From a phage: a stretch of 64,000 nt of DNA. The notes under the pieces are model-generated. The model saw only the letters and a program-made list of their open reading frames with translations, had not been told where the DNA came from and ran no database searches. The translations under genes were made by a program, and so were the position numbers. Location of the stretch: NCBI GenBank assembly GCA_021525805.1, contig GCA_021525805.1_3940.1. One strand, 5' to 3'. Shown here piece after piece: positions 1 through 18,759 of this stretch (position 1 is its first letter; each line of letters starts with the position of its first letter).

Positions 1-41
1 TGGCTATTAATAATCGTGAATTATTAATCTTAAAAGCACGT

Positions 42-404
42 TTGACCATTAATCGAATTAATGTGATGACATCAGCAGCACCAGATGAAACCTTATATAA
101 TATTATTGGGAAGATTCAAAGTGTTATCTTAGACGTTGAAAACGTAAAAAACTCATTGACTGACGTTGCAGCAGGTATCACGCTAGACGGTGCACAATAC
201 GAAATGGCTGACATGTTGGGCAAATCTAAGGTAATGAATAAAGAGCTTGATTTAAAAATGTTTAGATTCGCCGTGAAAGTATGGCTGTCCGTCGAGTATG
301 ATGCTAATTATGCAATCGCTGACTTTTTCGCCACTTGGTTGCAGCGTAATTTGACAAATCACGATTTTCGTGATATCTGCGATGCAATTTATGCAGAACT
401 TTAA
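42..404 (+). CDS. hypothetical early protein (may be 5'-partial)
   Basis: 120-aa ORF; frame is open back to position 1 so start may lie upstream of window; alternative ATG at 66. Confidence 0.5.
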   Translation: MTINRINVMTSAAPDETLYNIIGKIQSVILDVENVKNSLTDVAAGITLDGAQYEMADMLGKSKVMNKELDLKMFRFAVKVWLSVEYDANYAIADFFATWLQRNLTNHDFRDICDAIYAEL

Positions 405-413
405 AAATTTTCT

Positions 414-442
414 TGACACTGGTTTTTATGTAGGTTAAATTA
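414..442 (+). promoter_or_regulatory. putative sigma70-type promoter
   Basis: TTGACA at 414-419 with A/T-rich -10-like hexamer about 16-17 nt downstream. Confidence 0.4.
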
Positions 443-505
443 CACATCAACGGGGGGCGATAACCTCCCCACTAAATAAAACCCTTAAACTAGGAGATTC
501 AAAAA
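441..505 (+). repeat. conserved early intergenic cassette copy 1 (GC hairpin + CACTAAATAAA + CCTAAACTGGAGATTCAAAAATG RBS/start)
   Basis: near-identical cassette recurs upstream of ORFs at 506, 1727, 2288, 2881. Confidence 0.7.
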
Positions 506-709
506 ATGGCTATTATTAACGGTTTAAACATTGAAACTACTCACATCAAAGATATCAAAGTCGGTGATATAGTCCTTTTTCACGGCGTAGAAAAAACTGT
601 CACTGCAAAGGATATCAAAGAGGATTCTTTCATGGGTCGGTCGCTCTTTGGTGACTCCTATTGCTTGGGTTACCGTGCGGTTTTAAAAGTTGTCAAAAAT
701 AACCGATAA
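506..709 (+). CDS. hypothetical early protein
   Basis: 67-aa ORF with GGAG RBS and ATG inside conserved cassette. Confidence 0.6.
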   Translation: MAIINGLNIETTHIKDIKVGDIVLFHGVEKTVTAKDIKEDSFMGRSLFGDSYCLGYRAVLKVVKNNR

Positions 710-794
710 AGTACTTTACAGGGGGCTTAAAAGCTGATATCTTAAGCCCCAGATAAAGAGCTTTACCACTAAATCCTAAACTGGAGATTCTAAA

Positions 795-1337
795 ATGAAA
801 TGCTTTCACGGTACTACTCAAGAAAACTTCATCAACTTAATTAATAACGGTGATAAACCATCAGGCGCATGGAATTGTTCGGACATGGACGGCAATTTTT
901 ACGTATATCCAGAAAATAAAATCTATGGCGACGATGCGGAAGAGATAGCATCTGAAGGTATCCAGCAGGCTCTAGGTAATGCCGCTATCACCGCAGCTTT
1001 CCAGATGAAAACCCAAAATATTGTTATCTTAGAACTTGATATCCCAGAGGATGACCTAAATGATGATTATTCTTGTGATAATATGTCTGGCGTGGCAAGT
1101 TTTACAGAATACTTTGATTTAAGCTGGGTTAAAAAGGTTTACATCACTGAATTTAATGCTATGTTTTCACCTTTTTGTCTTCCTTCACTGGATAACCCGA
1201 ATTTAAACTATATTGACGAGTCTCTGGAACTTCTCGCTAAAAGCGTTCAACAGTCCGACAGTATTCAAGTTTTTTGTGACATCATGGACACGCTGACGGG
1301 AAACATCGCAGAAAGAGATTTAAAGAGCTTTTTCTAA
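795..1337 (+). CDS. hypothetical early protein
   Basis: 180-aa ORF; upstream hairpin 721-760 then CACTAAATCCTAAACTGGAGATTCTAAAATG. Confidence 0.65.
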   Translation: MKCFHGTTQENFINLINNGDKPSGAWNCSDMDGNFYVYPENKIYGDDAEEIASEGIQQALGNAAITAAFQMKTQNIVILELDIPEDDLNDDYSCDNMSGVASFTEYFDLSWVKKVYITEFNAMFSPFCLPSLDNPNLNYIDESLELLAKSVQQSDSIQVFCDIMDTLTGNIAERDLKSFF

Positions 1338-1370
1338 AAACCTATGCAATCACCTTATAAACACTAATCA

Positions 1371-1390
1371 GCCCCTTACAGGGGTTTTTA
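1371..1390 (+). terminator. putative rho-independent terminator
   Basis: CCCCTTACAGGGG hairpin followed by T-run. Confidence 0.45.
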
Positions 1391-1403
1391 GAGGGCTTAA
1401 ATC

Positions 1404-1637
1404 ATGCTTACAACCGTTTATCTCATCCTTTCTATTTGTAACGGTCATTCATGCGATTTTAAAGGGCTTGAGGAGTTTACAGGGAGTAAAGAAAATGCTG
1501 TTCAAGTGTGCCAGATAGCAAGGCAAGACTATCCCGCCAGTGATGATATACAATGTTACTTTAAGACAGAAGATGAAGATGGTGTCTATTTTGACAGCGT
1601 AGATGGTCAGTATGAAATTATCATTGAAAAAGACTAG
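1404..1637 (+). CDS. hypothetical early protein
   Basis: 77-aa ORF, GAGGG RBS. Confidence 0.55.
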   Translation: MLTTVYLILSICNGHSCDFKGLEEFTGSKENAVQVCQIARQDYPASDDIQCYFKTEDEDGVYFDSVDGQYEIIIEKD

Positions 1638-1660
1638 ACAAGCCTGATAAAAGTCTGTAA

Positions 1661-1726
1661 ATTGTCAATCAACGGGGAGGGAATGACCTTCCCCACTAAA
1701 TAAAGTCCTAAACTGGAGATTCAAAA
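1661..1726 (+). repeat. conserved early intergenic cassette copy 2
   Basis: ATTGTCAATCAACGGGGAGGGAATGACCTTCCCCACTAAATAAAGTCCTAAACTGGAGATTCAAAAATG. Confidence 0.7.
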
Positions 1727-2068
1727 ATGGCTTATGTAACCGTAATTACCGATAAAGCTGGCTCATCTTGGTCAACTCAAGTAAGCGATAAGATATCGCC
1801 TATGCAGTGCCTAAAATACTTTGAGCAATGGAACAAGGGCGAGGATATCAGCCCCTTTCAAGTGATGCAGATTATCCATGTAAGTAATGAAGGGACTAAA
1901 ACGGTTTTAAATAGTGAGCACTATGCAACCAGATTTGAAACGAGATGTAAAACGATGAAGCTATTACGTGAATCCGGCTATTCTCATATTGCCGCGCTAA
2001 TCTGGGATGACTTGCTAAAAAATCAGCGTATCAGCTATGTAAAACCTGAAAAAATATTCATCAGTTAA
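1727..2068 (+). CDS. hypothetical early protein
   Basis: 113-aa ORF after cassette. Confidence 0.65.
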   Translation: MAYVTVITDKAGSSWSTQVSDKISPMQCLKYFEQWNKGEDISPFQVMQIIHVSNEGTKTVLNSEHYATRFETRCKTMKLLRESGYSHIAALIWDDLLKNQRISYVKPEKIFIS

Positions 2069-2100
2069 TCAATAACTTACAAAAAACTTTTAAAAAAGTG

Positions 2101-2129
2101 TTGACAATACCCCTTGACATTGGTAATGT
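2101..2129 (+). promoter_or_regulatory. putative sigma70-type promoter
   Basis: TTGACA 2101-2106, 17-nt spacer, TAATGT 2124-2129. Confidence 0.45.
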
Positions 2130-2220
2130 TGTTCGAGGGGGTTTATCTAAAAGGGATTCACTTAAAAGATTCTTTATAGATAAGCTGAAAAAATTGCTTG
2201 CAAAGGCAAATCAAAACAAG

Positions 2221-2287
2221 TAAATTACTAATCAACGGGAGGGATGACCTCCCACTAAATAAAATCCTTAAACTAGGAGATTCAAAA
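2221..2287 (+). repeat. conserved early intergenic cassette copy 3
   Basis: TAAATTACTAATCAACGGGAGGGATGACCTCCCACTAAATAAAATCCTTAAACTAGGAGATTCAAAAATG. Confidence 0.7.
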
Positions 2288-2818
2288 ATGAACAAGTTCA
2301 AAGCTATCAACTTCATTCGTTCAAATGCTGTAATGTCTAAGCCTGTTAAAGATACCTATGAATTTCGCTGCAATGGTGTACACTTTGCAACCATCACTAA
2401 ATCAGAAAAAGGGGCTTATTACGTTCATCGTCGTAATGTTGCAACCGTTGTGGTCTCTCATTTTATGCAAGCTGTCGCGGAACTTCTCCCGATGTTTTTA
2501 GGTCTTTACTTGGATGAGTGTAAAAACGTTCACAATCACGTTAAAAACCTTTTAAATAGCTATAAAATGGCTTACGAGCGTTCAATCAAGTCATTAAACA
2601 AGTTCTATAAAGCCCCTGTAAATACTGTTTCAATGGCTTACAATGTAAGCGGTGAGTTAGTTAGTCTCTTTGAAGTGGAAGAAATCGAACTGCATGACTT
2701 GCGCCCTAGTGGTTACAGCAAAACATTGGGAGAGGGCTTATCTTTCAATATCAAGAACTTAGAAAAAACTTTAAAAGATATTGAAAAAGACATTGACGAG
2801 ACAATCAAAAATCTGTAA
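2288..2818 (+). CDS. hypothetical early protein (start refined from track ORF 2198..2818)
   Basis: track ORF begins at TTG 2198 and reads through the cassette; internal ATG at 2288 sits at the conserved RBS spacing. Confidence 0.6.
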   Translation: MNKFKAINFIRSNAVMSKPVKDTYEFRCNGVHFATITKSEKGAYYVHRRNVATVVVSHFMQAVAELLPMFLGLYLDECKNVHNHVKNLLNSYKMAYERSIKSLNKFYKAPVNTVSMAYNVSGELVSLFEVEEIELHDLRPSGYSKTLGEGLSFNIKNLEKTLKDIEKDIDETIKNL

Positions 2819-2880
2819 ATTACTCATTAACGGGGAATGACCTTCCCCACTAAATAAAGTCCTAAACTGGAGTTATCAAG
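2816..2880 (+). repeat. conserved early intergenic cassette copy 4
   Basis: TAAATTACTCATTAACGGGGAATGACCTTCCCCACTAAATAAAGTCCTAAACTGGAGTTATCAAGATG; stop codon of upstream gene lies inside the conserved TAAATTAC. Confidence 0.7.
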
Positions 2881-3144
2881 ATGGAAAACGTAGAATTAAC
2901 CACACTTTTACAAATTGCAACCGACAAAGAAAACGTAGCTTTATTTCACCGCATCGAAAGTGATTTGTTCAATGGTGAAATCATCAAAGAGTCTTACGAG
3001 GTTGTTGGATTCAAAGATGGTAAAACATTTGGATTCTTTGACCTCGAAAAAGGCAACGCGATTACAAAATATGATGTTTTATCTTGTGAGATTCTGACAA
3101 AATACAACGAAAAAAGGCTTGCAACATACGCCAACATGCAGTAA
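2881..3144 (+). CDS. hypothetical early protein
   Basis: 87-aa ORF after cassette; ends in TAAATTACTAATCAACG motif followed by GGGGCTAAATAGCCCC hairpin. Confidence 0.6.
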   Translation: MENVELTTLLQIATDKENVALFHRIESDLFNGEIIKESYEVVGFKDGKTFGFFDLEKGNAITKYDVLSCEILTKYNEKRLATYANMQ

Positions 3145-3149
3145 ATTAC

Positions 3150-4800
3150 TAATCAACGCAGCGGGGCTAAATAGCCCCAGATACCTTTACAGCCCCTTTC
3201 CCATATAGATTCGATAGAGTCTATCTCATAGGGGCTTTTTTACATCCTATCAAATCCCTTATACAACCCTTTCCCTTTCCTTTCCAGAATCTTATCAGAC
3301 CTTAAAAAGCAATAACTCTATAGTCTACTCTATAGCCTTTTATCAAATCAACTTAAATATAAGCCCATAACCCGAAAGGGAAGGGCAACCCCTTAAACGC
3401 TCTATAACGCTCTATAACAGCCTTATCAACCTAACTTAAAGGATTGCATTACCTCACCCTTAAAAGCCCTTTATAAAGCTTCCCAGAGCCTTAAAAGAAT
3501 CTTATAAGGGTATAAGCTTATAGGCTGACTAGTATCTTGTGAATGGTTAAACAAACCCCTTGATAGTCATTAAAAAGCATGTTATAGGGGCTATGAAGTT
3601 ACTTTGAAGTAGCTTAAAAGTTACGTAAATGCTAGCCCCCTTAACATTTTCTTAACAATTTCTTAACAAACCCTACATAGTTATGCTTTTAAGGCACTTG
3701 TTAGCAACTTGTTAGCCCCTTGTTAAATCTCTGTTAAGACCACGTAAAAGCCTTGTAAGAGTCTTTGACATAGCCTTTAAAGCCCCTGTAAAGCCCTATA
3801 AAGAGCTATCTGTACAGTTGGGCTGTAGTTACTAGGGAGAGACTTAAAAGGGGCTATACAGAGCTATACAGAGCTTTTAAGAGGTATGTTTAAAGAATCA
3901 CTAAGAAAGGAAAGGGAACGATAAGAAAAGAGTAGTGACCATGTTAATAGCTTGTTAAAAAGATTAAACACTTGTTAGGAACTTGTTAATTATCTTAACA
4001 AAATAACTCTTAAAAATTAACTTGTTAGCTCTTGTTAGTCATCTGTTAAGACTCTGTAAAGGCTATGTATCAACTGTTAAGAAATTGTTACAGCCTTGTT
4101 AGTTCTGTTAAGAAACTGTTAAGACCTCTGAAGAGTTGTTAAGAAGATGTGAGAACTGTTAAGAGATTGTTAAGGATATTTTAAAATTTTGCAAAGGGGG
4201 TGTTAAGGAGCTGTTAAGGGCTACCAAGCAGATATACATCCTAGACAGATATTTTTCAGTGCCTTCAAAGACCCTAAAAAATGACTTGATAGCCCTATTT
4301 TATAAAAATTTTAAGATTCTGAATAATTACCTATACAGTCTTTTAAAAATACAGGTAATAACAGGTTTATAAGATACCTTGTTAGTACCGTGTTAGACCT
4401 TGTGAGATAAGGTCTGTGAAGACATTCCTGTTAAGTTTGTTAAAACAGTCTATATAGAGGCTTAGTAATACCTAGTGAACACCTATAGAGAGTCATCTAT
4501 GTAACATAGAGATTAAGAGGTGTATAGGAGCTTCTAAGAGTGTGTAGAGAGATGGTTAAGGTGATTGTATAGGCTGTTAAGAAGGCTTGTTAGAAGAGTG
4601 TTTAGAAGGATTGTTAGAGGGCTAGTTAGAAGGGTTATACAGAGGGCTATTAAGACCACTAGATAGTTACTAAGATACTATATAGCACTATATAACTATA
4701 TAGAGAGTAAGATTAAGAAGGTTGTTAAGAAGGATAGATATTTTGTTCACATATGATGGTGACCCAGAGGTTGGGACAACCGATAAAATTTTATAAAAAT
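3150..4800. repeat. ORF-free repeat-rich region (phased TGTTAAG/TTGTTAG-type short repeats plus other short direct repeats and hairpins)
   Basis: no ORF of 60 aa or more on either strand; dozens of copies of CTGTTAAGA / CTTGTTAG / GGTTAAGG often about 10-11 bp apart, densest 3690-4740; also CTATAACGCTCTATAAC, CTATACAGAGCTATACAGAGC. Confidence 0.8.
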
Positions 4801-4836
4801 TAAAAAGCCCCCAATTAAGGAGGCTCTTAAGATATT

Positions 4837-5388
4837 TTAAATCAGTGTTTCCAGAACTGTCTTCAGTGATGACTTGGTTGTCTGATAAAAATGAGTGAAT
4901 CCATTGTTGTTATCGAACACCTGCATCATGATATCATCTCCCTTAATTGGGTACACTCGGATATCATAGTGAAAACCATTAAAGACAGCAGAACCATTAC
5001 AGAATGCACTAAAATCATCCACTGAGATGTACTCTTCATGACCTGTGATTTTTATACAAACGCCTTTACTCGGTCTCTTAGGGTTGATATCTTCCATCAC
5101 AGACATACTCTGTCCACCAAGAGATACCATAGTGACCACTTTACGGTTCTTCTGTCTAAAGTACATCTTAACTTTCTGCAAAGTATCTTCATAGAACGGA
5201 TAAGACTTCTCTACAAAGATTCCTTCTAATGGCTCTTTACCATTTACAGTCTCCCTGTTATGACGTACTGAGAAGATAAGTTGTCTTAGTACGTCAAGAT
5301 TTTCTTCGGAAAGTGCTTCTCGAACATCACTCCAGTCAAGTACTAGGTAGTTACCTTCAACTTCTTTTACATCTTTAAAAACTTGCAT
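4837..5388 (-). CDS. hypothetical protein
   Basis: 183-aa ORF, first gene of minus-strand block. Confidence 0.6.
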   Translation of the reverse strand: MQVFKDVKEVEGNYLVLDWSDVREALSEENLDVLRQLIFSVRHNRETVNGKEPLEGIFVEKSYPFYEDTLQKVKMYFRQKNRKVVTMVSLGGQSMSVMEDINPKRPSKGVCIKITGHEEYISVDDFSAFCNGSAVFNGFHYDIRVYPIKGDDIMMQVFDNNNGFTHFYQTTKSSLKTVLETLI

Positions 5389-5440
5389 ATTCGCTACCTT
5401 CTAAGTTCTACAAAGGGGCTATCAAGTAACCCCTAAGCTA

Positions 5441-5665
5441 TTACTCAGACTTTTCAGTCTTCTTATCGGATTTCTTACTAGTCTTCTTCTCAGCTTTCTG
5501 CTCAGGTTCCTTCTCAGGAGTTGCCTTGATAACCATATCAAGAAGCTCTGATAAGTCACTCTTCAGCAAAGTAACAGGCTGCTCATTGTAGAAGTTTTTG
5601 TCAAGATAGACTTTGAACTCTTCAATAGATGGAAATCCAAAAATTGGTACAGGTGTTTTAATCAT
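5441..5665 (-). CDS. hypothetical small protein with Lys/Glu-rich C-terminus
   Basis: 74-aa ORF. Confidence 0.45.
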   Translation of the reverse strand: MIKTPVPIFGFPSIEEFKVYLDKNFYNEQPVTLLKSDLSELLDMVIKATPEKEPEQKAEKKTSKKSDKKTEKSE

Positions 5666-5740
5666 TACTTAGCTCTCCATAGGCATCTTTTAAGATTGCC
5701 TTGTTAATCATTTCAGCGATTGCAAAACGAACACATACAG

Positions 5741-6274
5741 CTATAATTGTAGGTTGCATTCTTTACTTACCTCTTCAAGTTTAACCTCAGAGTCCTTAAG
5801 TAGTTTCTTATGAACCCTGAACCTTATTAGTGAGATGATGATACCAGCTAAAGGAACAGCATACAAGTACCAAACATCATGTACCTTTGCAGTAATCTGT
5901 GTAATGGTCAAGTCTTGAGCTATACAACTGATTGCTGATACTGCCAGTAACATTGCTAAGAAGAACGCCAGTACCATAACAATACTTAGGCAGCCTCTGG
6001 CATGGTGTTCATGCTTAATACACTTATTCTTTTCATCAACAACTCTGTTGTAGTCATTTGTAAAGTCTCTGTAGAAAGCTTTCAAGTATTCTTGACTGTA
6101 TCCTTCAAAGCAACCTGTGCCATACCAATAATCACCACCAAAATGTGCTATGATGCCGGTATCTCCATTCGGTTTGGTTACTTTTAAAGAAGTATGATGG
6201 CGAGTATCCTGATAATCTATCTTGTATCTTTCTTCGTAAATCATTTTCCAACCCCTCTCAATCGTTTGTTCCAT
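5741..6274 (-). CDS. hypothetical membrane protein
   Basis: 177-aa ORF with long hydrophobic segment (CLSIVMVLAFFLAMLLAVSAISCIA) and second TM-like stretch. Confidence 0.6.
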   Translation of the reverse strand: MEQTIERGWKMIYEERYKIDYQDTRHHTSLKVTKPNGDTGIIAHFGGDYWYGTGCFEGYSQEYLKAFYRDFTNDYNRVVDEKNKCIKHEHHARGCLSIVMVLAFFLAMLLAVSAISCIAQDLTITQITAKVHDVWYLYAVPLAGIIISLIRFRVHKKLLKDSEVKLEEVSKECNLQL

Positions 6275-15873: not shown

Positions 15874-16030
15874 CCTAATAAGATTTTAAAGCCAAGCTTC
15901 ATTCGGATGTTGCTTTGGTATCCCTCGTGTATTGTCGTACACACTGATAAAGCACCTAGTAGGTGTCACGGAGAAGAGATAATATCAAGCTCTCCAAAGG
16001 TTCTAGTCACCGGATTAAACAAGACTATGC

Positions 16031-16053
16031 AAAGACCTTTTTAGGTCTTTTTA
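16031..16053 (+). terminator. putative rho-independent terminator
   Basis: AAGACC-TTTTT-AGGTCTT followed by TTTT. Confidence 0.55.
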
Positions 16054-16131
16054 GAGGGCTTCTAAGGTTATTACAGCTTGTTGTGGAACCTTGTTGCTTA
16101 GGTTCTTAGAAGTTCTCTAAAAAGATTTAAT

Positions 16132-16209
16132 GGGAGATTGACGGTAATTGGTAAACCTATCTCGCTTAGAACGAGATGTTTGAGGGTTCGAATCCCTTGT
16201 CTCCTACCA
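16132..16209 (+). tRNA. tRNA with anticodon TAG (Leu-type anticodon, short variable arm)
   Basis: acceptor GGGAGAT/GTCTCCT, anticodon arm TCTCG-CTTAGAA-CGAGA perfect, T-arm GAGGGTTCGAATCCCTT, A73, CCA encoded. Confidence 0.6.
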
Positions 16210-16216
16210 AATTAAT

Positions 16217-16292
16217 GCAGGTGTAGCAAAATGGTTATGCGGCTGACTCTTAATCAGTAAGACGATGGGTTCAATTCCCTCCACCTGTACCA
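16217..16292 (+). tRNA. tRNA-Lys (anticodon CTT)
   Basis: acceptor GCAGGTG/CACCTGT; anticodon arm GCTGA-CTCTTAA-TCAGT; CCA encoded; paralogue of the TTT copy. Confidence 0.7.
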
Positions 16293-16298
16293 GATATT

Positions 16299-16373
16299 GG
16301 GGATGTAGTTTACATGGTTAAAACATAAGTTTTGCAAACTTAAGTACAGGGTTCAATTCCCTGCTTCTCCACC
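16299..16373 (+). tRNA. tRNA-Cys (anticodon GCA)
   Basis: anticodon arm AAGTT-TTGCAAA-AACTT; T-arm CAGGGTTCAATTCCCTG; CCA encoded. Confidence 0.65.
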
Positions 16374-16380
16374 AATTAGT

Positions 16381-16455
16381 GCATCCATAGTTTAAACGGG
16401 AAAATTACAGTCTTCCAAACTGAGGTTGAGGGTTCGATTCCCTCTGGATGCTCCA
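16381..16455 (+). tRNA. tRNA-Gly (anticodon TCC)
   Basis: acceptor GCATCCA/TGGATGC perfect; loop CTTCCAA; T-arm GAGGGTTCGATTCCCTC; CCA encoded. Confidence 0.75.
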
Positions 16456-16461
16456 AACAAT

Positions 16462-16538
16462 GCTGCTTTCGTATAATTGGCTATTACACATCCCTTGTAA
16501 GGATGGAAATGCAGGTTCGAGTCCTGTGAGCAGCACCA
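16462..16538 (+). tRNA. tRNA-Thr (anticodon TGT)
   Basis: anticodon arm CATCC-CTTGTAA-GGATG perfect; T-arm CAGGTTCGAGTCCTG; CCA encoded. Confidence 0.75.
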
Positions 16539-16540
16539 AT

Positions 16541-16632
16541 TCAGAGGTCAAGTGAAAGACCGCTGGTGTCAACTGAAGACCGTAACAAATTCCACGGAGT
16601 TGAGTTAGCGGCACAACTTCAGACCTCTTTCA
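16541..16632 (+). ncRNA. candidate structured RNA S6 (outer helix AGAGGTC/GACCTCT enclosing about 75 nt with box-like GAAGACCGT)
   Basis: nested complementary segments CTGAAG/CTTCAG, GTTG/CAAC; no tRNA T-loop; no ORF. Confidence 0.35.
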
Positions 16633-16633
16633 T

Positions 16634-16708
16634 ACTCGCTTAGTTTATATGGTAAAACATCACCCTTACAAGATGAAGAAAAAGGTTCAAGTCCTTTAGT
16701 GAGTACCA
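16634..16708 (+). tRNA. tRNA-Val (anticodon TAC)
   Basis: acceptor ACTCGCT/AGTGAGT, loop CTTACAA, T-arm AAAGGTTCAAGTCCTTT perfect, CCA encoded. Confidence 0.65.
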
Positions 16709-16709
16709 T

Positions 16710-16787
16710 GTTCCAGTATCCCAATTGGCAGAGGATGCAAGCTCAAACCTTGTATTAGTGACGGTTCGAATCCGTCTTGGAACACCA
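16710..16787 (+). tRNA. tRNA with anticodon CAA (Leu-type anticodon, short variable arm)
   Basis: acceptor GTTCCAG/TTGGAAC; D-loop AATTGGCAGA; anticodon arm GCAAG-CTCAAAC-CTTGT; CCA encoded. Confidence 0.6.
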
Positions 16788-16805
16788 ATTTAAAGAGGCT
16801 ATTTA

Positions 16806-17363
16806 ATGAGATATTTGAAGTATGCTTCATGGATTTTCTTAGCTTTACTAGACCCAATTGCAGCAACCCTAGCAGTTATCTTAGCACCTTTCGTAGTTCC
16901 ATTCTACAGTGAGAAGAAAGGGCATCTACCTTTTGGATTCAGATGGATGGAGACCTATGACAACCCGATTGATGGTGATAAAGGCCACGTTGAGAGATGG
17001 GCTAAGATTAGAAAGATTGGTAAGCTCGGTGTTTATATGCAGAGAGTTGGATGGCTCTGGAGAAACAAAGCTTATAACTTCTCTTACCATGTATTAGGAA
17101 GAGATGTAAAAGATGTTACTAAGTGGAAAGGCAATATCAACGTAAGTTCTGACCCTGAAGATAATCAGACTGGTTATCTCCTAATGTGGAACAGCAATGC
17201 TTGGGGATTATTCGCTTTTATCCCATCAATTAAAGTCTTTGGTAAACAATTTTACTGGAGAATTTATGTTGGGTGGAAACTAAAAAGTGTTGTCCCAGAA
17301 GAAAGAGCATTCTCAAGGGAAAGAGTTATGTTGGCATTCTTTATTCATCCACTGAGAAAGTAA
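16806..17363 (+). CDS. hypothetical membrane protein embedded in tRNA array
   Basis: 185-aa ORF with AAGAGG RBS; N-terminal TM segment WIFLALLDPIAATLAVILAPFVV. Confidence 0.6.
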   Translation: MRYLKYASWIFLALLDPIAATLAVILAPFVVPFYSEKKGHLPFGFRWMETYDNPIDGDKGHVERWAKIRKIGKLGVYMQRVGWLWRNKAYNFSYHVLGRDVKDVTKWKGNINVSSDPEDNQTGYLLMWNSNAWGLFAFIPSIKVFGKQFYWRIYVGWKLKSVVPEERAFSRERVMLAFFIHPLRK

Positions 17364-17371
17364 AGATTTAA

Positions 17372-17447
17372 AGGGGATTAGTTTACAAGGTTAAAACCTC
17401 GGTCTTTGAAATCGAAGAAGTTGGTTCAATTCCAACATCCCCCGCCA
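17372..17447 (+). tRNA. tRNA-Gln (anticodon TTG)
   Basis: anticodon arm TCGGT-CTTTGAA-ATCGA; T-arm GTTGGTTCAATTCCAAC perfect; CCA encoded. Confidence 0.65.
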
Positions 17448-17449
17448 AT

Positions 17450-17528
17450 GCTCCATTACTCCAATTGGCAGAGAGGCCAGACTTAAAATCTGTGTTATGT
17501 ATCGGTTCGAATCCGATATGGAGTACCA
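17450..17528 (+). tRNA. tRNA with anticodon TAA (Leu-type anticodon)
   Basis: acceptor GCTCCAT/ATGGAGT; D-loop AATTGGCAGA; loop CTTAAAA; T-arm ATCGGTTCGAATCCGAT perfect; CCA encoded. Confidence 0.6.
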
Positions 17529-17533
17529 AATTT

Positions 17534-17609
17534 AGCGGTATAGCATAACTGGCAATGCAACAGTCTCTGAAGCTGTCCTATTAAGGTTCAAATCCTTATG
17601 CCGCTGCCA
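17534..17609 (+). tRNA. tRNA-Gln (anticodon CTG)
   Basis: anticodon arm ACAGT-CTCTGAA-GCTGT; T-arm TAAGGTTCAAATCCTTA perfect; CCA encoded. Confidence 0.65.
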
Positions 17610-17640
17610 CTTCTAAGGGTTCTTACGAGAGTCCTTAAAT

Positions 17641-17716
17641 GTGGCCTTATCATAAATGGTAATGACCCATGCTGTGAACATGGTCTATACGGGTTCAAAT
17701 CCCGTAGGTCACCCCA
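17641..17716 (+). tRNA. tRNA-His (anticodon GTG)
   Basis: anticodon arm CCATG-CTGTGAA-CATGG perfect; acceptor GTGGCCT/AGGTCAC; CCA encoded. Confidence 0.75.
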
Positions 17717-17722
17717 ATTTAT

Positions 17723-17798
17723 AGTCCAAGTAGCTTATATGGTTAAAGCGCGTGTCTGAAAAACATGAGAAGAGGGTTCAAATCCCACTGGACTACCA
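17723..17798 (+). tRNA. tRNA-Phe (anticodon GAA)
   Basis: anticodon arm CGTGT-CTGAAAA-ACATG; T-loop TTCAAAT; CCA encoded. Confidence 0.7.
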
Positions 17799-17814
17799 AT
17801 TTCAAAGGTGCTTA

Positions 17815-18549
17815 ATGAAAGAGATGACAGAACAAGGTAAGGAGATTTTTAATCTCTTAAAAACCGGTAAAGGGTTTTCTAACCCACTTATTACTGGTGC
17901 AGCAGTTCTCGGTGGAACCGTAGCTGCCTCAACATCACTTATAAGCTCTATTAGCTCTGTAACAGACCCTACAATGAAGGAGAAGCTTGTTGCTGCTGGA
18001 CTTACAACAGTCCTTCTAAACAGCTTTACAACAAGCCTGACAAGCACTACAGCAACTACTAAGACCCTAACAGACTATGGTCAAAAGTCTATTGATGAGT
18101 TTTCATCACGTATGCAGGTAGCAAAGGGATACTCCAATGTTATGGGTGCAGCAGGAGAACAAGTTGGTTGTACACCATTCAGTGGTATTATGGGTGTTGC
18201 TACAGAATATGGTCAAAAAGCTATTGACATGATGAACAGTACACTAGATAGTGTTAATGGTGTGTTAAGTGACTTACAAGATGCTATTGATAAGGGTCTT
18301 GATACTGTTTCTGATTTGGCTAACCAAGCTGTTAGCAAGATTAATGAAGGTATCTCAAAGATTACAGCTTATGCAGATGAAGTTGTGCAGATGATTGAAG
18401 AAGAAGCTGCCCTTATTGCAGAGTACCTTAAAACGAATATCAATGGGTTCTTAGCAGGTATCTTACCAGACTGGTTTGATGATGCTTGTAAAACTGGTGT
18501 AATCGACACTATTGCAACACCAGAAATGAAGAACGCATTGCAGAAATAA
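17815..18549 (+). CDS. hypothetical Ser/Thr/Ala-rich protein (start refined from track ORF 17752..18549)
   Basis: track ORF starts at GTG inside tRNA-Phe; ATG at 17815 lies just past the tRNA; stop abuts tRNA-Ser. Confidence 0.55.
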   Translation: MKEMTEQGKEIFNLLKTGKGFSNPLITGAAVLGGTVAASTSLISSISSVTDPTMKEKLVAAGLTTVLLNSFTTSLTSTTATTKTLTDYGQKSIDEFSSRMQVAKGYSNVMGAAGEQVGCTPFSGIMGVATEYGQKAIDMMNSTLDSVNGVLSDLQDAIDKGLDTVSDLANQAVSKINEGISKITAYADEVVQMIEEEAALIAEYLKTNINGFLAGILPDWFDDACKTGVIDTIATPEMKNALQK

Positions 18550-18550
18550 T

Positions 18551-18643
18551 GGAAGATTAACCCTAAAAGGTAAGGGAGCAGTTTGCTAAACTGCCAGTAG
18601 CTGAGAAATCGGTGTACCAGTTCAAGTCTGGTATCTTCCTCCA
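18551..18643 (+). tRNA. tRNA-Ser (anticodon GCT), long variable arm
   Basis: 93 nt; acceptor GGAAGAT/ATCTTCC perfect; anticodon arm GCAGT-TTGCTAA-ACTGC perfect; T-arm ACCAGTTCAAGTCTGGT; CCA encoded. Confidence 0.75.
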
Positions 18644-18647
18644 ATTT

Positions 18648-18723
18648 GAATCCGTGACAGAAATGGCTATGTGCCTGTCTGCAAAACAGGTTTATAAGTG
18701 TTCAAGTCCCTTCGGATTCTCCA
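18648..18723 (+). tRNA. tRNA with anticodon GCA (second Cys-type copy)
   Basis: acceptor GAATCCG/CGGATTC perfect; anticodon arm CCTGT-CTGCAAA-ACAGG perfect; CCA encoded. Confidence 0.6.
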
Positions 18724-18759
18724 AGTTATTTTACTCTCTCTCAATTAAAATAATAATAA

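Follow-up and report, generated by a model that had tools for sequence, protein, structure and literature searches.

Near one end of a 64,000-nt stretch of phage DNA (GenBank assembly GCA_021525805.1, contig GCA_021525805.1_3940.1; "the window" denotes this whole stretch), a conserved element recurs ahead of small early genes, and we posit that each copy is a self-contained early-gene expression cassette of ~110 bp, of the kind known from T4-like phages as the promoter-early stem-loop (PeSL). We put the probability of this reading at roughly 70%. A preliminary description had presented the element as a ~65-nt repeat; its four copies lie where it placed them, but when 40 nt of upstream sequence are added to the alignment, the similarity runs on into the preceding genes, and the conserved unit starts ~50 nt farther 5', with A-tracts and a -35 hexamer, bringing each copy to ~110 bp. 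The closest record to the first 6 kb is Escherichia phage finno (92% identity, 99% coverage; 260 phage records match), the nearest relatives are all Felixounavirus or related Ounavirinae, and, judged by these matches, the window is a Felixounavirus.

The repeats sit at the 3' end of a plus-strand array of small genes that ends at 3144, corresponds to open reading frames (ORFs) 15-23 of phage Felix O1, and is separated by a 1.6-kb non-coding gap from a minus-strand array that it faces. The seven ORFs in 1-3144 all belong to PHROGs of unknown function, with no Pfam match. The cassettes are confined to 1-3.2 kb of the window; because the window begins within the array, more copies farther upstream would not be visible here. 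Four full copies, which we call type A, have TAAATT at 436, 1658, 2221, and 2816 and ATG at 506, 1727, 2288, and 2881, and a truncated fifth has TAAATT at 3142. Their parts are as follows, the promoter elements being predicted ones (SD, Shine-Dalgarno sequence; PWM, position weight matrix):

386-508, plus strand: type-A cassette 1, before the ORF at 506-709; A/T-rich tract 399-412, -35 TTGACA 413-418, 17-bp spacer, -10 TAAATT 436-441, start region ACACATCAAC 442-451 with the predicted start at C448/A449, hairpin GGGGGGCGATAACCTCCCC 452-470, A-rich leader 471-492, SD GGAG 493-496, ATG 506; ranked 12 by PWM.
1608-1729, plus strand: type-A cassette 2, before the ORF at 1727-2068; A-tract GAAAAA 1626-1631, -35 TAGACA 1635-1640, -10 TAAATT 1658-1663, hairpin GGGGAGGGAATGACCTTCCCC 1674-1694, SD 1715-1718, ATG 1727.
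2171-2290, plus strand: type-A cassette 3, before the ORF at 2288-2818; A-tract 2187-2192, -35 TTGCAA 2198-2203, -10 TAAATT 2221-2226, hairpin GGGAGGGATGACCTCCC 2237-2253, SD 2276-2279, ATG 2288.
2766-2883, plus strand: type-A cassette 4, before the ORF at 2881-3144; A-tract 2784-2788, -35 TTGACG 2793-2798 within the last codons of the ORF at 2288-2818, -10 TAAATT 2816-2821, hairpin GGGGAATGACCTTCCCC 2832-2848, SD 2869-2872, ATG 2881; ranked 23 by PWM.
3092-3178, plus strand: truncated cassette 5, an orphan promoter half recognized by comparison with finno; A-tract 3103-3108, -35 TTGCAA 3119-3124, -10 TAAATT 3142-3147, ACTAATCAACG 3148-3158 as the deletion junction, hairpin GGGGCTAAATAGCCCC 3163-3178.

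From TAAATT to ATG the four full copies are 77-89% identical to one another. The lead-in pattern TAAATTNNNNATNAACG, with at most one mismatch, occurs five times in the 64 kb against 0.39 expected, a count that none of 100 shuffled sequences reaches, and the post-hairpin pattern CACTAAATAAANNCCTNAAC occurs four times against 0.38 expected; the repeats are far above chance. All cassettes have one orientation and stand directly 5' of an ATG, and GGAG lies 8 nt 5' of the ATG in the four full type-A copies as well as in the related type-B cassette described below. The hairpin-plus-RBS (ribosome-binding site) module of the preliminary description stands. Copy 4 has ATTAACG, and its RBS tail (GGAGTTATCAAGATG) diverges; copy 2 reads TAAATTGT where the preliminary description had given TAAATTAC as shared by all. 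The TAA of the lead-in, put forward there as the stop codon of the preceding gene at 2816 and 3142, is just that at both sites (ORF 2288-2818 and ORF 2881-3144) but not at 436 or 1658: upstream of copy 1 the stop codon is at 402-404, which makes its promoter wholly intergenic, and upstream of copy 2 it is the TAG at 1635-1637, which ends the ORF at 1404-1637 and forms the first bases of the -35 hexamer.

The RBS block itself occurs in two forms, CCT-AAACT-GGAG (484-496 and 2267-2279) and CCTT-AAACT-AGGAG (1707-1718 and 2861-2872). By eye, in the sequences read, the extra T and the extra A occur only together, and a 3-4 bp mini-hairpin holding the GGA of the SD is kept; the two forms may, however, be haplotypes whose differences lie 6 nt apart and are linked by descent.

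Comparison with relatives was one of the checks that the preliminary description called for, and the cassettes are conserved there. We read the arrays of finno, Meda, Felix O1, wV8, Mordin, Moogle, vB_SflM_004, and PC79-13 (Suspvirus), and later that of Erwinia phage phiEa104 (Kolesnikvirus). The type-A comparative set holds 45 cassettes (43 unique sequences) from nine phages of three genera, and the type-B set 42 copies from ten genomes. The cassette was found at 1410 places in 247 phage records, up to nine per genome and before many small genes, as befits a modular, reused unit; cassettes at orthologous sites span these 247 records and four genera.

Upstream of TAAATT, a TTGACA-like hexamer stands at exactly 17 bp in all five window copies (413, 1635, 2198, 2793, and 3119), and GAAAAA-type A-tracts precede each of these -35 hexamers. 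A simple PWM built from the hexamer frequencies of classic Escherichia coli promoter compilations ranks the five sites 12, 23, 134, 164, and 164 among 127,940 positions on both strands, within the top 0.13%, and a σ70 consensus scan flags three of them. To avoid selection bias, we also anchored the comparison on ATCA[AG](A)CGGG, which holds no promoter base: across nine genomes TAnnnT is present at the expected distance in 39 of 40 sites and T(T/A)G a further 17 bp 5' in 38, one of the two exceptions being a chance match within coding sequence. The most informative positions among the 43 unique copies are the A-tracts at -55..-50 and -45..-40, the -35 (T.98, T.88, G.98, A.65, C.60, A.67), and the -10; over most of the spacer the information content is near zero. 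The -10 hexamer varies among genera (TAAATT, TAAAGT, TATAGT, TAGTAT, and TAATAT), always with T1, A2, and T6 kept. TAAATT is unchanged in copies 1 and 2, where it is not a stop codon, and the wV8 orthologue of copy 3 reads TATAGT, so that the TAA can be dispensed with at that site. TTGACG, which in the ORF22 family lies within the last codons, is identical across three genera, whereas the next 17 coding nucleotides mostly differ. An A-tract or AT-rich block is present upstream of the -35, and the stop codon of type-A copies falls more often in the -35 or the -10.

On this comparative evidence TAAATT is best read as a σ70 -10 hexamer, not merely as a stop codon. The preliminary description had treated the lead-in as an intercistronic or stop context only, which holds for some copies; it missed the putative promoter (-35, N17, TAnnnT). 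With a promoter in each cassette, the array would more likely comprise short transcription units than one processed polycistronic mRNA. In Felix O1, ORFs 16, 20, 21, and 22, each with a cassette upstream, were found by reverse transcription-PCR to peak at 5 min (PMC3185647). Upstream of copies 3 and 5, TGCTTGCA was also considered as a T4 MotA box (middle promoter) and, on inspection, rejected.

The hairpin is conserved as a structure more than as a sequence. In the window the type-A hairpins fold as 6-8 bp stems; among the 45 cassettes there are 26 distinct hairpin sequences, all of which fold, with 4-8 bp. The preliminary description had a variable loop on a constant stem, and pairing is indeed held by compensatory changes, but the stems vary too: the outer three pairs are almost always G-C and are the only constant ones, with pairs 4-6 using G-C, A-U, C-G, and G-U. 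The G-run starts 10 nt after the -10 in 40 of the 45 copies, and the predicted transcription start lies 3 nt (range 2-5) from the stem in the copies in which the fold was read, a figure that leaves out 15 of the 45 (unique-sequence groups of 13 and 2) in which the 5' untranslated region (UTR) was cut at an ATG within the hairpin loop. No U-tract follows any type-A or type-B hairpin, and a terminator scan flags none of them; their 3' neighbours are ACTAAATAAA or AGATAAAGAG, in place of the U-tract of an intrinsic terminator, so these are not canonical intrinsic terminators. An Rfam scan of 1-5000 (E<=1) gave two sub-threshold chance matches, at 26 bits against a gathering score of 55, and no known RNA family.

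Where the hairpin sits relative to the promoter is not fixed. It is downstream of the -10 in type A, extends over the spacer and the -10 in type B, and surrounds the -10 in a type-A-like cassette of phiEa104 that keeps ATCAAC after the -10 (TTGACA..GAGGGG-TTAAAAT-CCCCTC-ATCAAC); in type B and phiEa104 it is upstream of the predicted start. A hairpin that is always present, at a position that is not, argues against a role bound to one RNA end, and we favor a common role exerted on read-through RNA or on DNA, not specifically on the cassette's own 5' end.

Two further features of the hairpin arms are noted in passing. The 5' arm GGGAGG (452-470, 1674-1694, and 2237-2253) resembles a strong SD, and the 3' arm, GAURACCUCCC, resembles the 3' end of 16S rRNA (GAUCACCUCCUUA); both likenesses may only reflect the purine-run/pyrimidine-run composition. 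For Felix O1 ORF19 (L003 9983) and finno_25 (L001 3683), the database start is the ATG inside the hairpin loop (GGGGAGGGAATGACC); a start after GGAG, ~45 nt downstream, is much more plausible.

Within the span covered by the preliminary description, and unreported there, lies a related cassette of a second type:

703-797, plus strand: type-B cassette, before the ORF at 795-1337; upstream stop TAA 707-709 in an A/T-rich tract, -35 TTTACA 715-720, 17-bp spacer, -10 TATCTT 738-743, upper hairpin GGGGCTTAA..TTAAGCCCC 722-750 across the spacer and the -10, conserved AGATAAAGAGCTTTACC 751-767, SD GGAG 783-786, ATG 795.

Type B shares the 3' RBS block with type A. The 20 nt 5' of its -35 are 76% A+T and hold the stop codon. 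When the copies are anchored on the downstream CCCAGATAAAGAG, all 42 have TTTACA followed by TAnnnT, spaced by 17 bp in 40 and by 18 bp in two. Ten different -10 hexamers are in use, and their T1 and A2 never change, even though they lie in the hairpin loop, free of pairing demands. The upper stem occurs in 27 distinct versions that all fold (-9.8 to -16.1 kcal/mol), with compensatory changes at pairs 3, 7, 8, and 9; GGGG/CCCC has become GGTG/CACC in all four phiEa104 copies. In the window, AGATAAAGAGCTTTACC pairs back on AAAGTACTTTA (708-718) to give a long composite stem. Across copies the flanks AAAGTACTTTA and TAAAGAGCTTT pair as a lower stem that includes one covarying pair (G-C to U-A), so that in read-through RNA the whole type-B promoter would lie in a ~70-nt hairpin. 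The composite stem comprises 16 consensus pairs plus 3-4 upper pairs (~16-20 bp, with internal loops). The window copy matches the phiEa104 type-B cassette at E = 8e-11. As an alternative promoter, the stop-bearing TAAAGT was tried as the -10 and rejected; a TTG hexamer lies 16-18 bp upstream of it in only one of 41 contexts.

Maps of the array in nine phages show single genes or small blocks present in some and absent from others, with a cassette at most joints, and the gains and losses between relatives have junctions inside cassettes in the three events that could be resolved. Felix O1 and Meda are without the 87-aa gene (window 2881-3144); at that site Felix O1 has a single cassette, of which the left part matches the upstream cassette of finno and the right part the downstream one. 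Felix O1 is also without the three genes at window 506-1637 (the L-D-E block), and in its single cassette there the sequence as far as ATCAAC agrees with window copy 1, and the hairpin with copy 2. At the three resolved junctions there are chimeric cassettes or microhomology within the cassette, and all three crossovers fall in ~20 nt just 5' of the hairpin. These indels support the proposal that the repeats trace the recombination that built the array.

Truncated copy 5 records such an event. The preliminary description had listed it as a fifth variant, with the same lead-in and another hairpin, and it is present as described at 3142-3178. In finno a full cassette and an 82-aa gene precede ...ACTAATCGACG-CAGCGGGGCTATTTAGCCCC, the gene lying between ACTAATCAACG and ACTAATCGACG; the window joins the cassette's ACTAATCAACG straight to CAGCGGGGCTAAATAGCCCC, and its hairpin GGGGCTAAATAGCCCC is part of what lies downstream of the missing gene in relatives. 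By this comparison the fifth copy is the scar of a one-gene deletion (ORF23 family). With the 161-nt junction as query, the top-listed matches among 151 records all align in two pieces spanning 420-476 bp (~300 extra bp), which means that the listed relatives keep the gene and that the deletion is unseen in any of them. The orphan promoter half would fire, if at all, into the hairpin and the terminator of the array:

3191-3241, plus strand: strong terminator closing the plus-strand array, AGCCCC...GGGGCT followed by TTTTTT, found by folding.

The region 3155-3245 folds at -32.5 kcal/mol (z = -4.8), and the terminator is homologous to t23 of Felix O1 (PMC3185647).

PeSLs were defined in the T4-like phages RB49/phi1, T4/PST, and KVP40/nt-1 (Arbiol et al. 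2010, PMC2839356; Comeau et al. 2014, PMC4122927) and consist of an AT-rich tract with the upstream stop codon, σ70 boxes at N17, a GGGG..CCCC stem-loop, an SD, and the ATG (PMC2839356). Five positions are known for the stem-loop, among them one between the boxes, one over the -10, and one immediately 3' of the -10; PeSLs cluster in plastic ORFan regions, bound indels, and can form mini-circles (PMC2839356). The window cassettes have the same order of parts (AT-rich/stop, -35, N17, -10, stem-loop, leader, SD, and ATG), cluster in the same way among small genes of unknown function, and likewise bound indels between close relatives; type B matches the first two of the stem-loop positions named and type A the third. 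On direct reading, the PeSLs of coliphage RB49 have these layouts too; upstream of RB49 ORF207, TTGACA-17-TAACAT-10 nt-GGGAGGGGTAATACTCTCCC has that of type A, and the SD-ATG block GGAGAATCAAAAATG is nearly identical. In a search of 14 kb against 49 kb, a phiEa104 cassette aligns with three RB49 PeSLs (E = 9e-5, 3e-4, and 4e-3) from the -10 to the ATG and shares with them a 19-nt string, CCCATCGAAACGAAACAA, at the same position (phiEa104 L010 1784-1837; RB49 L009 31658-31987 and 23217-23261), which suggests a common origin or an exchange of regulatory cassettes between phage families. The window cassettes match RB49 only in the SD-ATG block and in one AT-rich/-35 block (E = 0.003-0.04).

The two systems also differ. 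PeSLs are a feature of T4-like phages, whereas the cassettes described here belong to Ounavirinae with genomes of ~87 kb; the PeSL -10 is TATAAT and that of the cassettes TAAATT or TAAAGT, which are weaker; a long conserved A-rich leader (ACTAAATAAA..CCTAAAC) is peculiar to type A, and an extra lower stem enclosing the whole promoter to type B. Promoter and stem-loop terminator activity were measured for PeSLs of RB49/phi1; in the cassettes the promoters are predicted from sequence. In the literature searched we found no link between PeSLs and Felix O1-like phages, and no PeSL outside T4-like phages. The elements themselves have been seen before: the Felix O1 genome paper (Whichard et al. 2010) reported 39-bp and 57-bp direct repeats and left them uninterpreted, its promoter search gave none in this region, and how transcription passes the terminators was left open (PMC3185647). 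The 39-bp repeat, TTGACACTGG..TAAATTACACATCAAC, is the type-A promoter half, and the 57-bp repeat, CTTTACATGGGGC..CCCCAGATAAAGAGCTTTACCACT, is type B; the GenBank record of wV8 annotates the same repeats as DR_1..DR_9, and the wV8 paper does not discuss them.

The anatomy of the cassettes, their pattern of conservation, the compensatory changes in the stems, and the indels bounded by cassettes are observations, from which promoter activity, the start site, and the role of the hairpin are inferred. Taken together, we propose that a cassette would work as follows. Two UP-element-like A-tracts (~-55..-50 and -45..-40) and a -35 (TTGACA, TTGACG, TTGCAA, or TAGACA) in or just past the last codons of the upstream gene, followed by a variable 17-bp spacer and the -10 TAAATT, with its TAA doubling as the upstream stop in some copies, would recruit host σ70 RNA polymerase, which would start ~7-8 nt after TAAATT, in the conserved region ACnnATCAAC. 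Transcription of the array would then fall into a series of short early units in place of one polycistronic mRNA. The G-run/C-run hairpin, which in type A starts 10 nt after the -10, probably acts on read-through from upstream, as an attenuator, an insulator, or a 3'-end cap, as measured for RB49 PeSLs; in type A it would also lie ~3 nt from the 5' end of its own RNA, where end protection is possible. The A-rich leader and GGAG 8 nt before the ATG would ensure efficient translation. Finally, the shared 110 bp would serve as portable homology, by which inter-cassette recombination would delete, insert, or swap small flanked genes, each moved gene taking its own expression signals along.

End protection has a precedent: the ompA 5' UTR reportedly bears a 5'-terminal stabilizer stem-loop (Emory, Bouvet and Belasco, 1992), and the type-A hairpin, ~3 nt from the predicted 5' end, would be within protective distance. 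In type B and phiEa104, by contrast, the hairpin is upstream of the predicted start, and 5'-end stabilization cannot be the role common to all cassettes.

Several observations weigh against the promoter-based cassette reading. The promoter consensus scan of 1-6000 finds 20 sites against 17.3 expected, without overall excess, so the case rests on the comparative pattern, and the copies are homologous and hence not independent observations. TAAATT matches TATAAT at four of six positions, as two of the -35 hexamers match their consensus. The folding z-scores of the predicted 5' UTRs range from -0.46 (copy 1) to -3.0, with -1.55 for copy 4; single-sequence folding is weak evidence because shuffled sequence of the same G-run/C-run composition folds too. 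What follows the hairpins is ACUAAAUAAA or AGAUAAAGAG, with no U-tract. In Felix O1, ORFs 17, 19, and 23, which are also preceded by cassettes, peak at 25 min (PMC3185647), and the literature searched on Felix O1-like phages yielded no transcript 5'-end or transcriptome data.

Some of these points would sit well with a single long early mRNA, in which the cassette is purely post-transcriptional, an RNase processing or stabilizer hairpin with a strong RBS, and TAAATT and the similarity upstream of it reflect only a stop context and shared descent. The early region of phage T7 works in this way, with intercistronic RNase III hairpins (R0.3-R1.3), three left-end promoters, and one long processed transcript; an RNase III site of this type comprises ~20 bp of double-stranded RNA (two helical turns), often with an internal loop. 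The likeness lies in the intercistronic hairpin and RBS between small early genes and in the size of the type-B composite stem, which, ~16-20 bp long and with one compensatory change from G-C to U-A, might be cut by RNase III. In both types, moreover, the hairpin is always 12-20 nt after the upstream stop and before the SD, read-through is likely since the hairpins have no U-tracts, and the promoters assigned here are predicted from sequence. We nevertheless consider this alternative rather unlikely. Unlike the T7 sites, each hairpin here has its own -35/-10, and type-A stems of 6-8 bp lack the length that RNase III requires. TAAATT does not change even in the copies in which it ends no gene, and TATAGT of wV8 loses the TAA; the A-tracts and a -35 spaced at exactly 17 bp persist although the spacer and the coding sequence around them have diverged; the ten type-B -10 hexamers are all TAnnnT although T1 and A2 are in the loop; and RB49 cassettes of the same layout, one of them similar to the phiEa104 cassette, have been measured as strong promoters (PMC2839356). 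If instead the hairpins were ordinary intrinsic terminators ending each transcript, with the other similarity incidental, one could point to GC-rich stems directly after stop codons and to an RB49 stem-loop that is as effective as rrnB T1, cutting downstream lacZ as much, in the same lacZ reporter work that measured both promoter and terminator activity of RB49 PeSLs (PMC2839356). This is highly improbable, for no T-run follows the type-A or type-B hairpins and the terminator scan is silent on them; the two hairpins that do have a T-tail (1371-1389 and 3191-3241) differ from them in appearance and stand apart.

A different view would make the block ATCAACGGGG and the hairpin chiefly a protein recognition site, either an early-shutoff operator or the target of a structure-specific recombination enzyme, an idea also raised by the PeSL authors (PMC2839356). 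Conservation in the cassette is highest at the -2..+8 block, the G-run/C-run of the stem is kept far more strictly than pairing needs, and the three crossovers fall in ~20 nt just 5' of the hairpin; but plain homologous recombination would place crossovers in the longest invariant block, the hairpin shifts relative to the other motifs between types and genera, and there is no candidate protein, the array ORFs all being in families of unknown function. We regard this view as very doubtful. Recent duplications without a function of their own, selfish or neutral repeats, would fit the 77-89% identity and the annotation of Felix O1 and wV8, which records only direct repeats; this hardly seems credible given orthologous sites in 247 records and four genera, conservation structured by element, compensatory stem changes, and a single orientation immediately 5' of the ATG.

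Were the expression-cassette reading to hold, the repeats would supply ~10-17 candidate early promoters per genome for a region in which the Felix O1 paper lists none, and the gain and loss of cassette-flanked units would explain differences in gene content among phages that are ~90% identical and are used in Salmonella typing and biocontrol. Modular shuffling of the PeSL kind, confined to T4-like phages in the literature searched, would extend to a second subfamily, with a hint of sequence relatedness. A bolder extension is that PeSL-type cassettes are an exchangeable regulatory currency between two unrelated virulent groups, T4-like Straboviridae and Ounavirinae, whether inherited or acquired horizontally. 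Gene and cassette would be actively moved together as mini-circles, for which the G-run/C-run hairpin would be the favored site of crossover or recognition, and the early array of Felix O1-like phages would then work as an integron-like gene-cassette system. The 19-nt identity, the alignment at E = 9e-5, and the three crossovers 5' of the hairpin are compatible with such exchange without demonstrating it, and we think it unlikely. On the practical side, several database genes are called from an ATG within the hairpin loop, and the cassettes could be used as compact, naturally insulated expression units.

Two other promoter- or terminator-like elements lie in the array:

1371-1389, plus strand: terminator-like hairpin GCCCCTTACAGGGG followed by TTTTT, after the ORF at 795-1337; the only T-tailed hairpin within the array.
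2101-2140, plus strand: third promoter-plus-hairpin arrangement, TTGACA-N17-TAATGT (2101-2129), overlapped by the inverted repeat CCCCTTGA..TCGAGGGG (2110-2140); PWM rank 34 of 127,940.

The terminator scan missed the first of these, whose stem has fewer than five pairs; the GenBank record of wV8 annotates its homologue as a Rho-independent terminator. The AT-rich/-35 block of the third arrangement resembles RB49 PeSLs (E = 0.011). The ~90-nt leader that follows it (GTTTATCTAAAAGGGATTCACTTAAAAGATTCTTTATAGATAAGC) runs into cassette 3 and is conserved in Mordin, Moogle, and PC79-13; the region 2098-2220 may be a small RNA, a leader, or a 41-aa ORF (2098-2223).

A search of the minus-strand array and the rest of the first 20 kb gave no further cassette family; the repeats that it brought up are tRNA genes and a non-coding repeat field. 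The latter fills the 1.6-kb gap at 3250-4800 with short degenerate repeats, (C/T)TGTTA(A/G), CTATACAGAG, and CTCTATAACG, many at 10-12 bp spacing; the gap is ~91% conserved in finno, and the field looks like an iteron or protein-binding field, perhaps a replication origin or something tied to the genome ends. The tRNA gene cluster, at 13900-18750, is seen as repeat families of the T-arm and acceptor end, in keeping with the report of 22 tRNAs in Felix O1 (PMC3185647).

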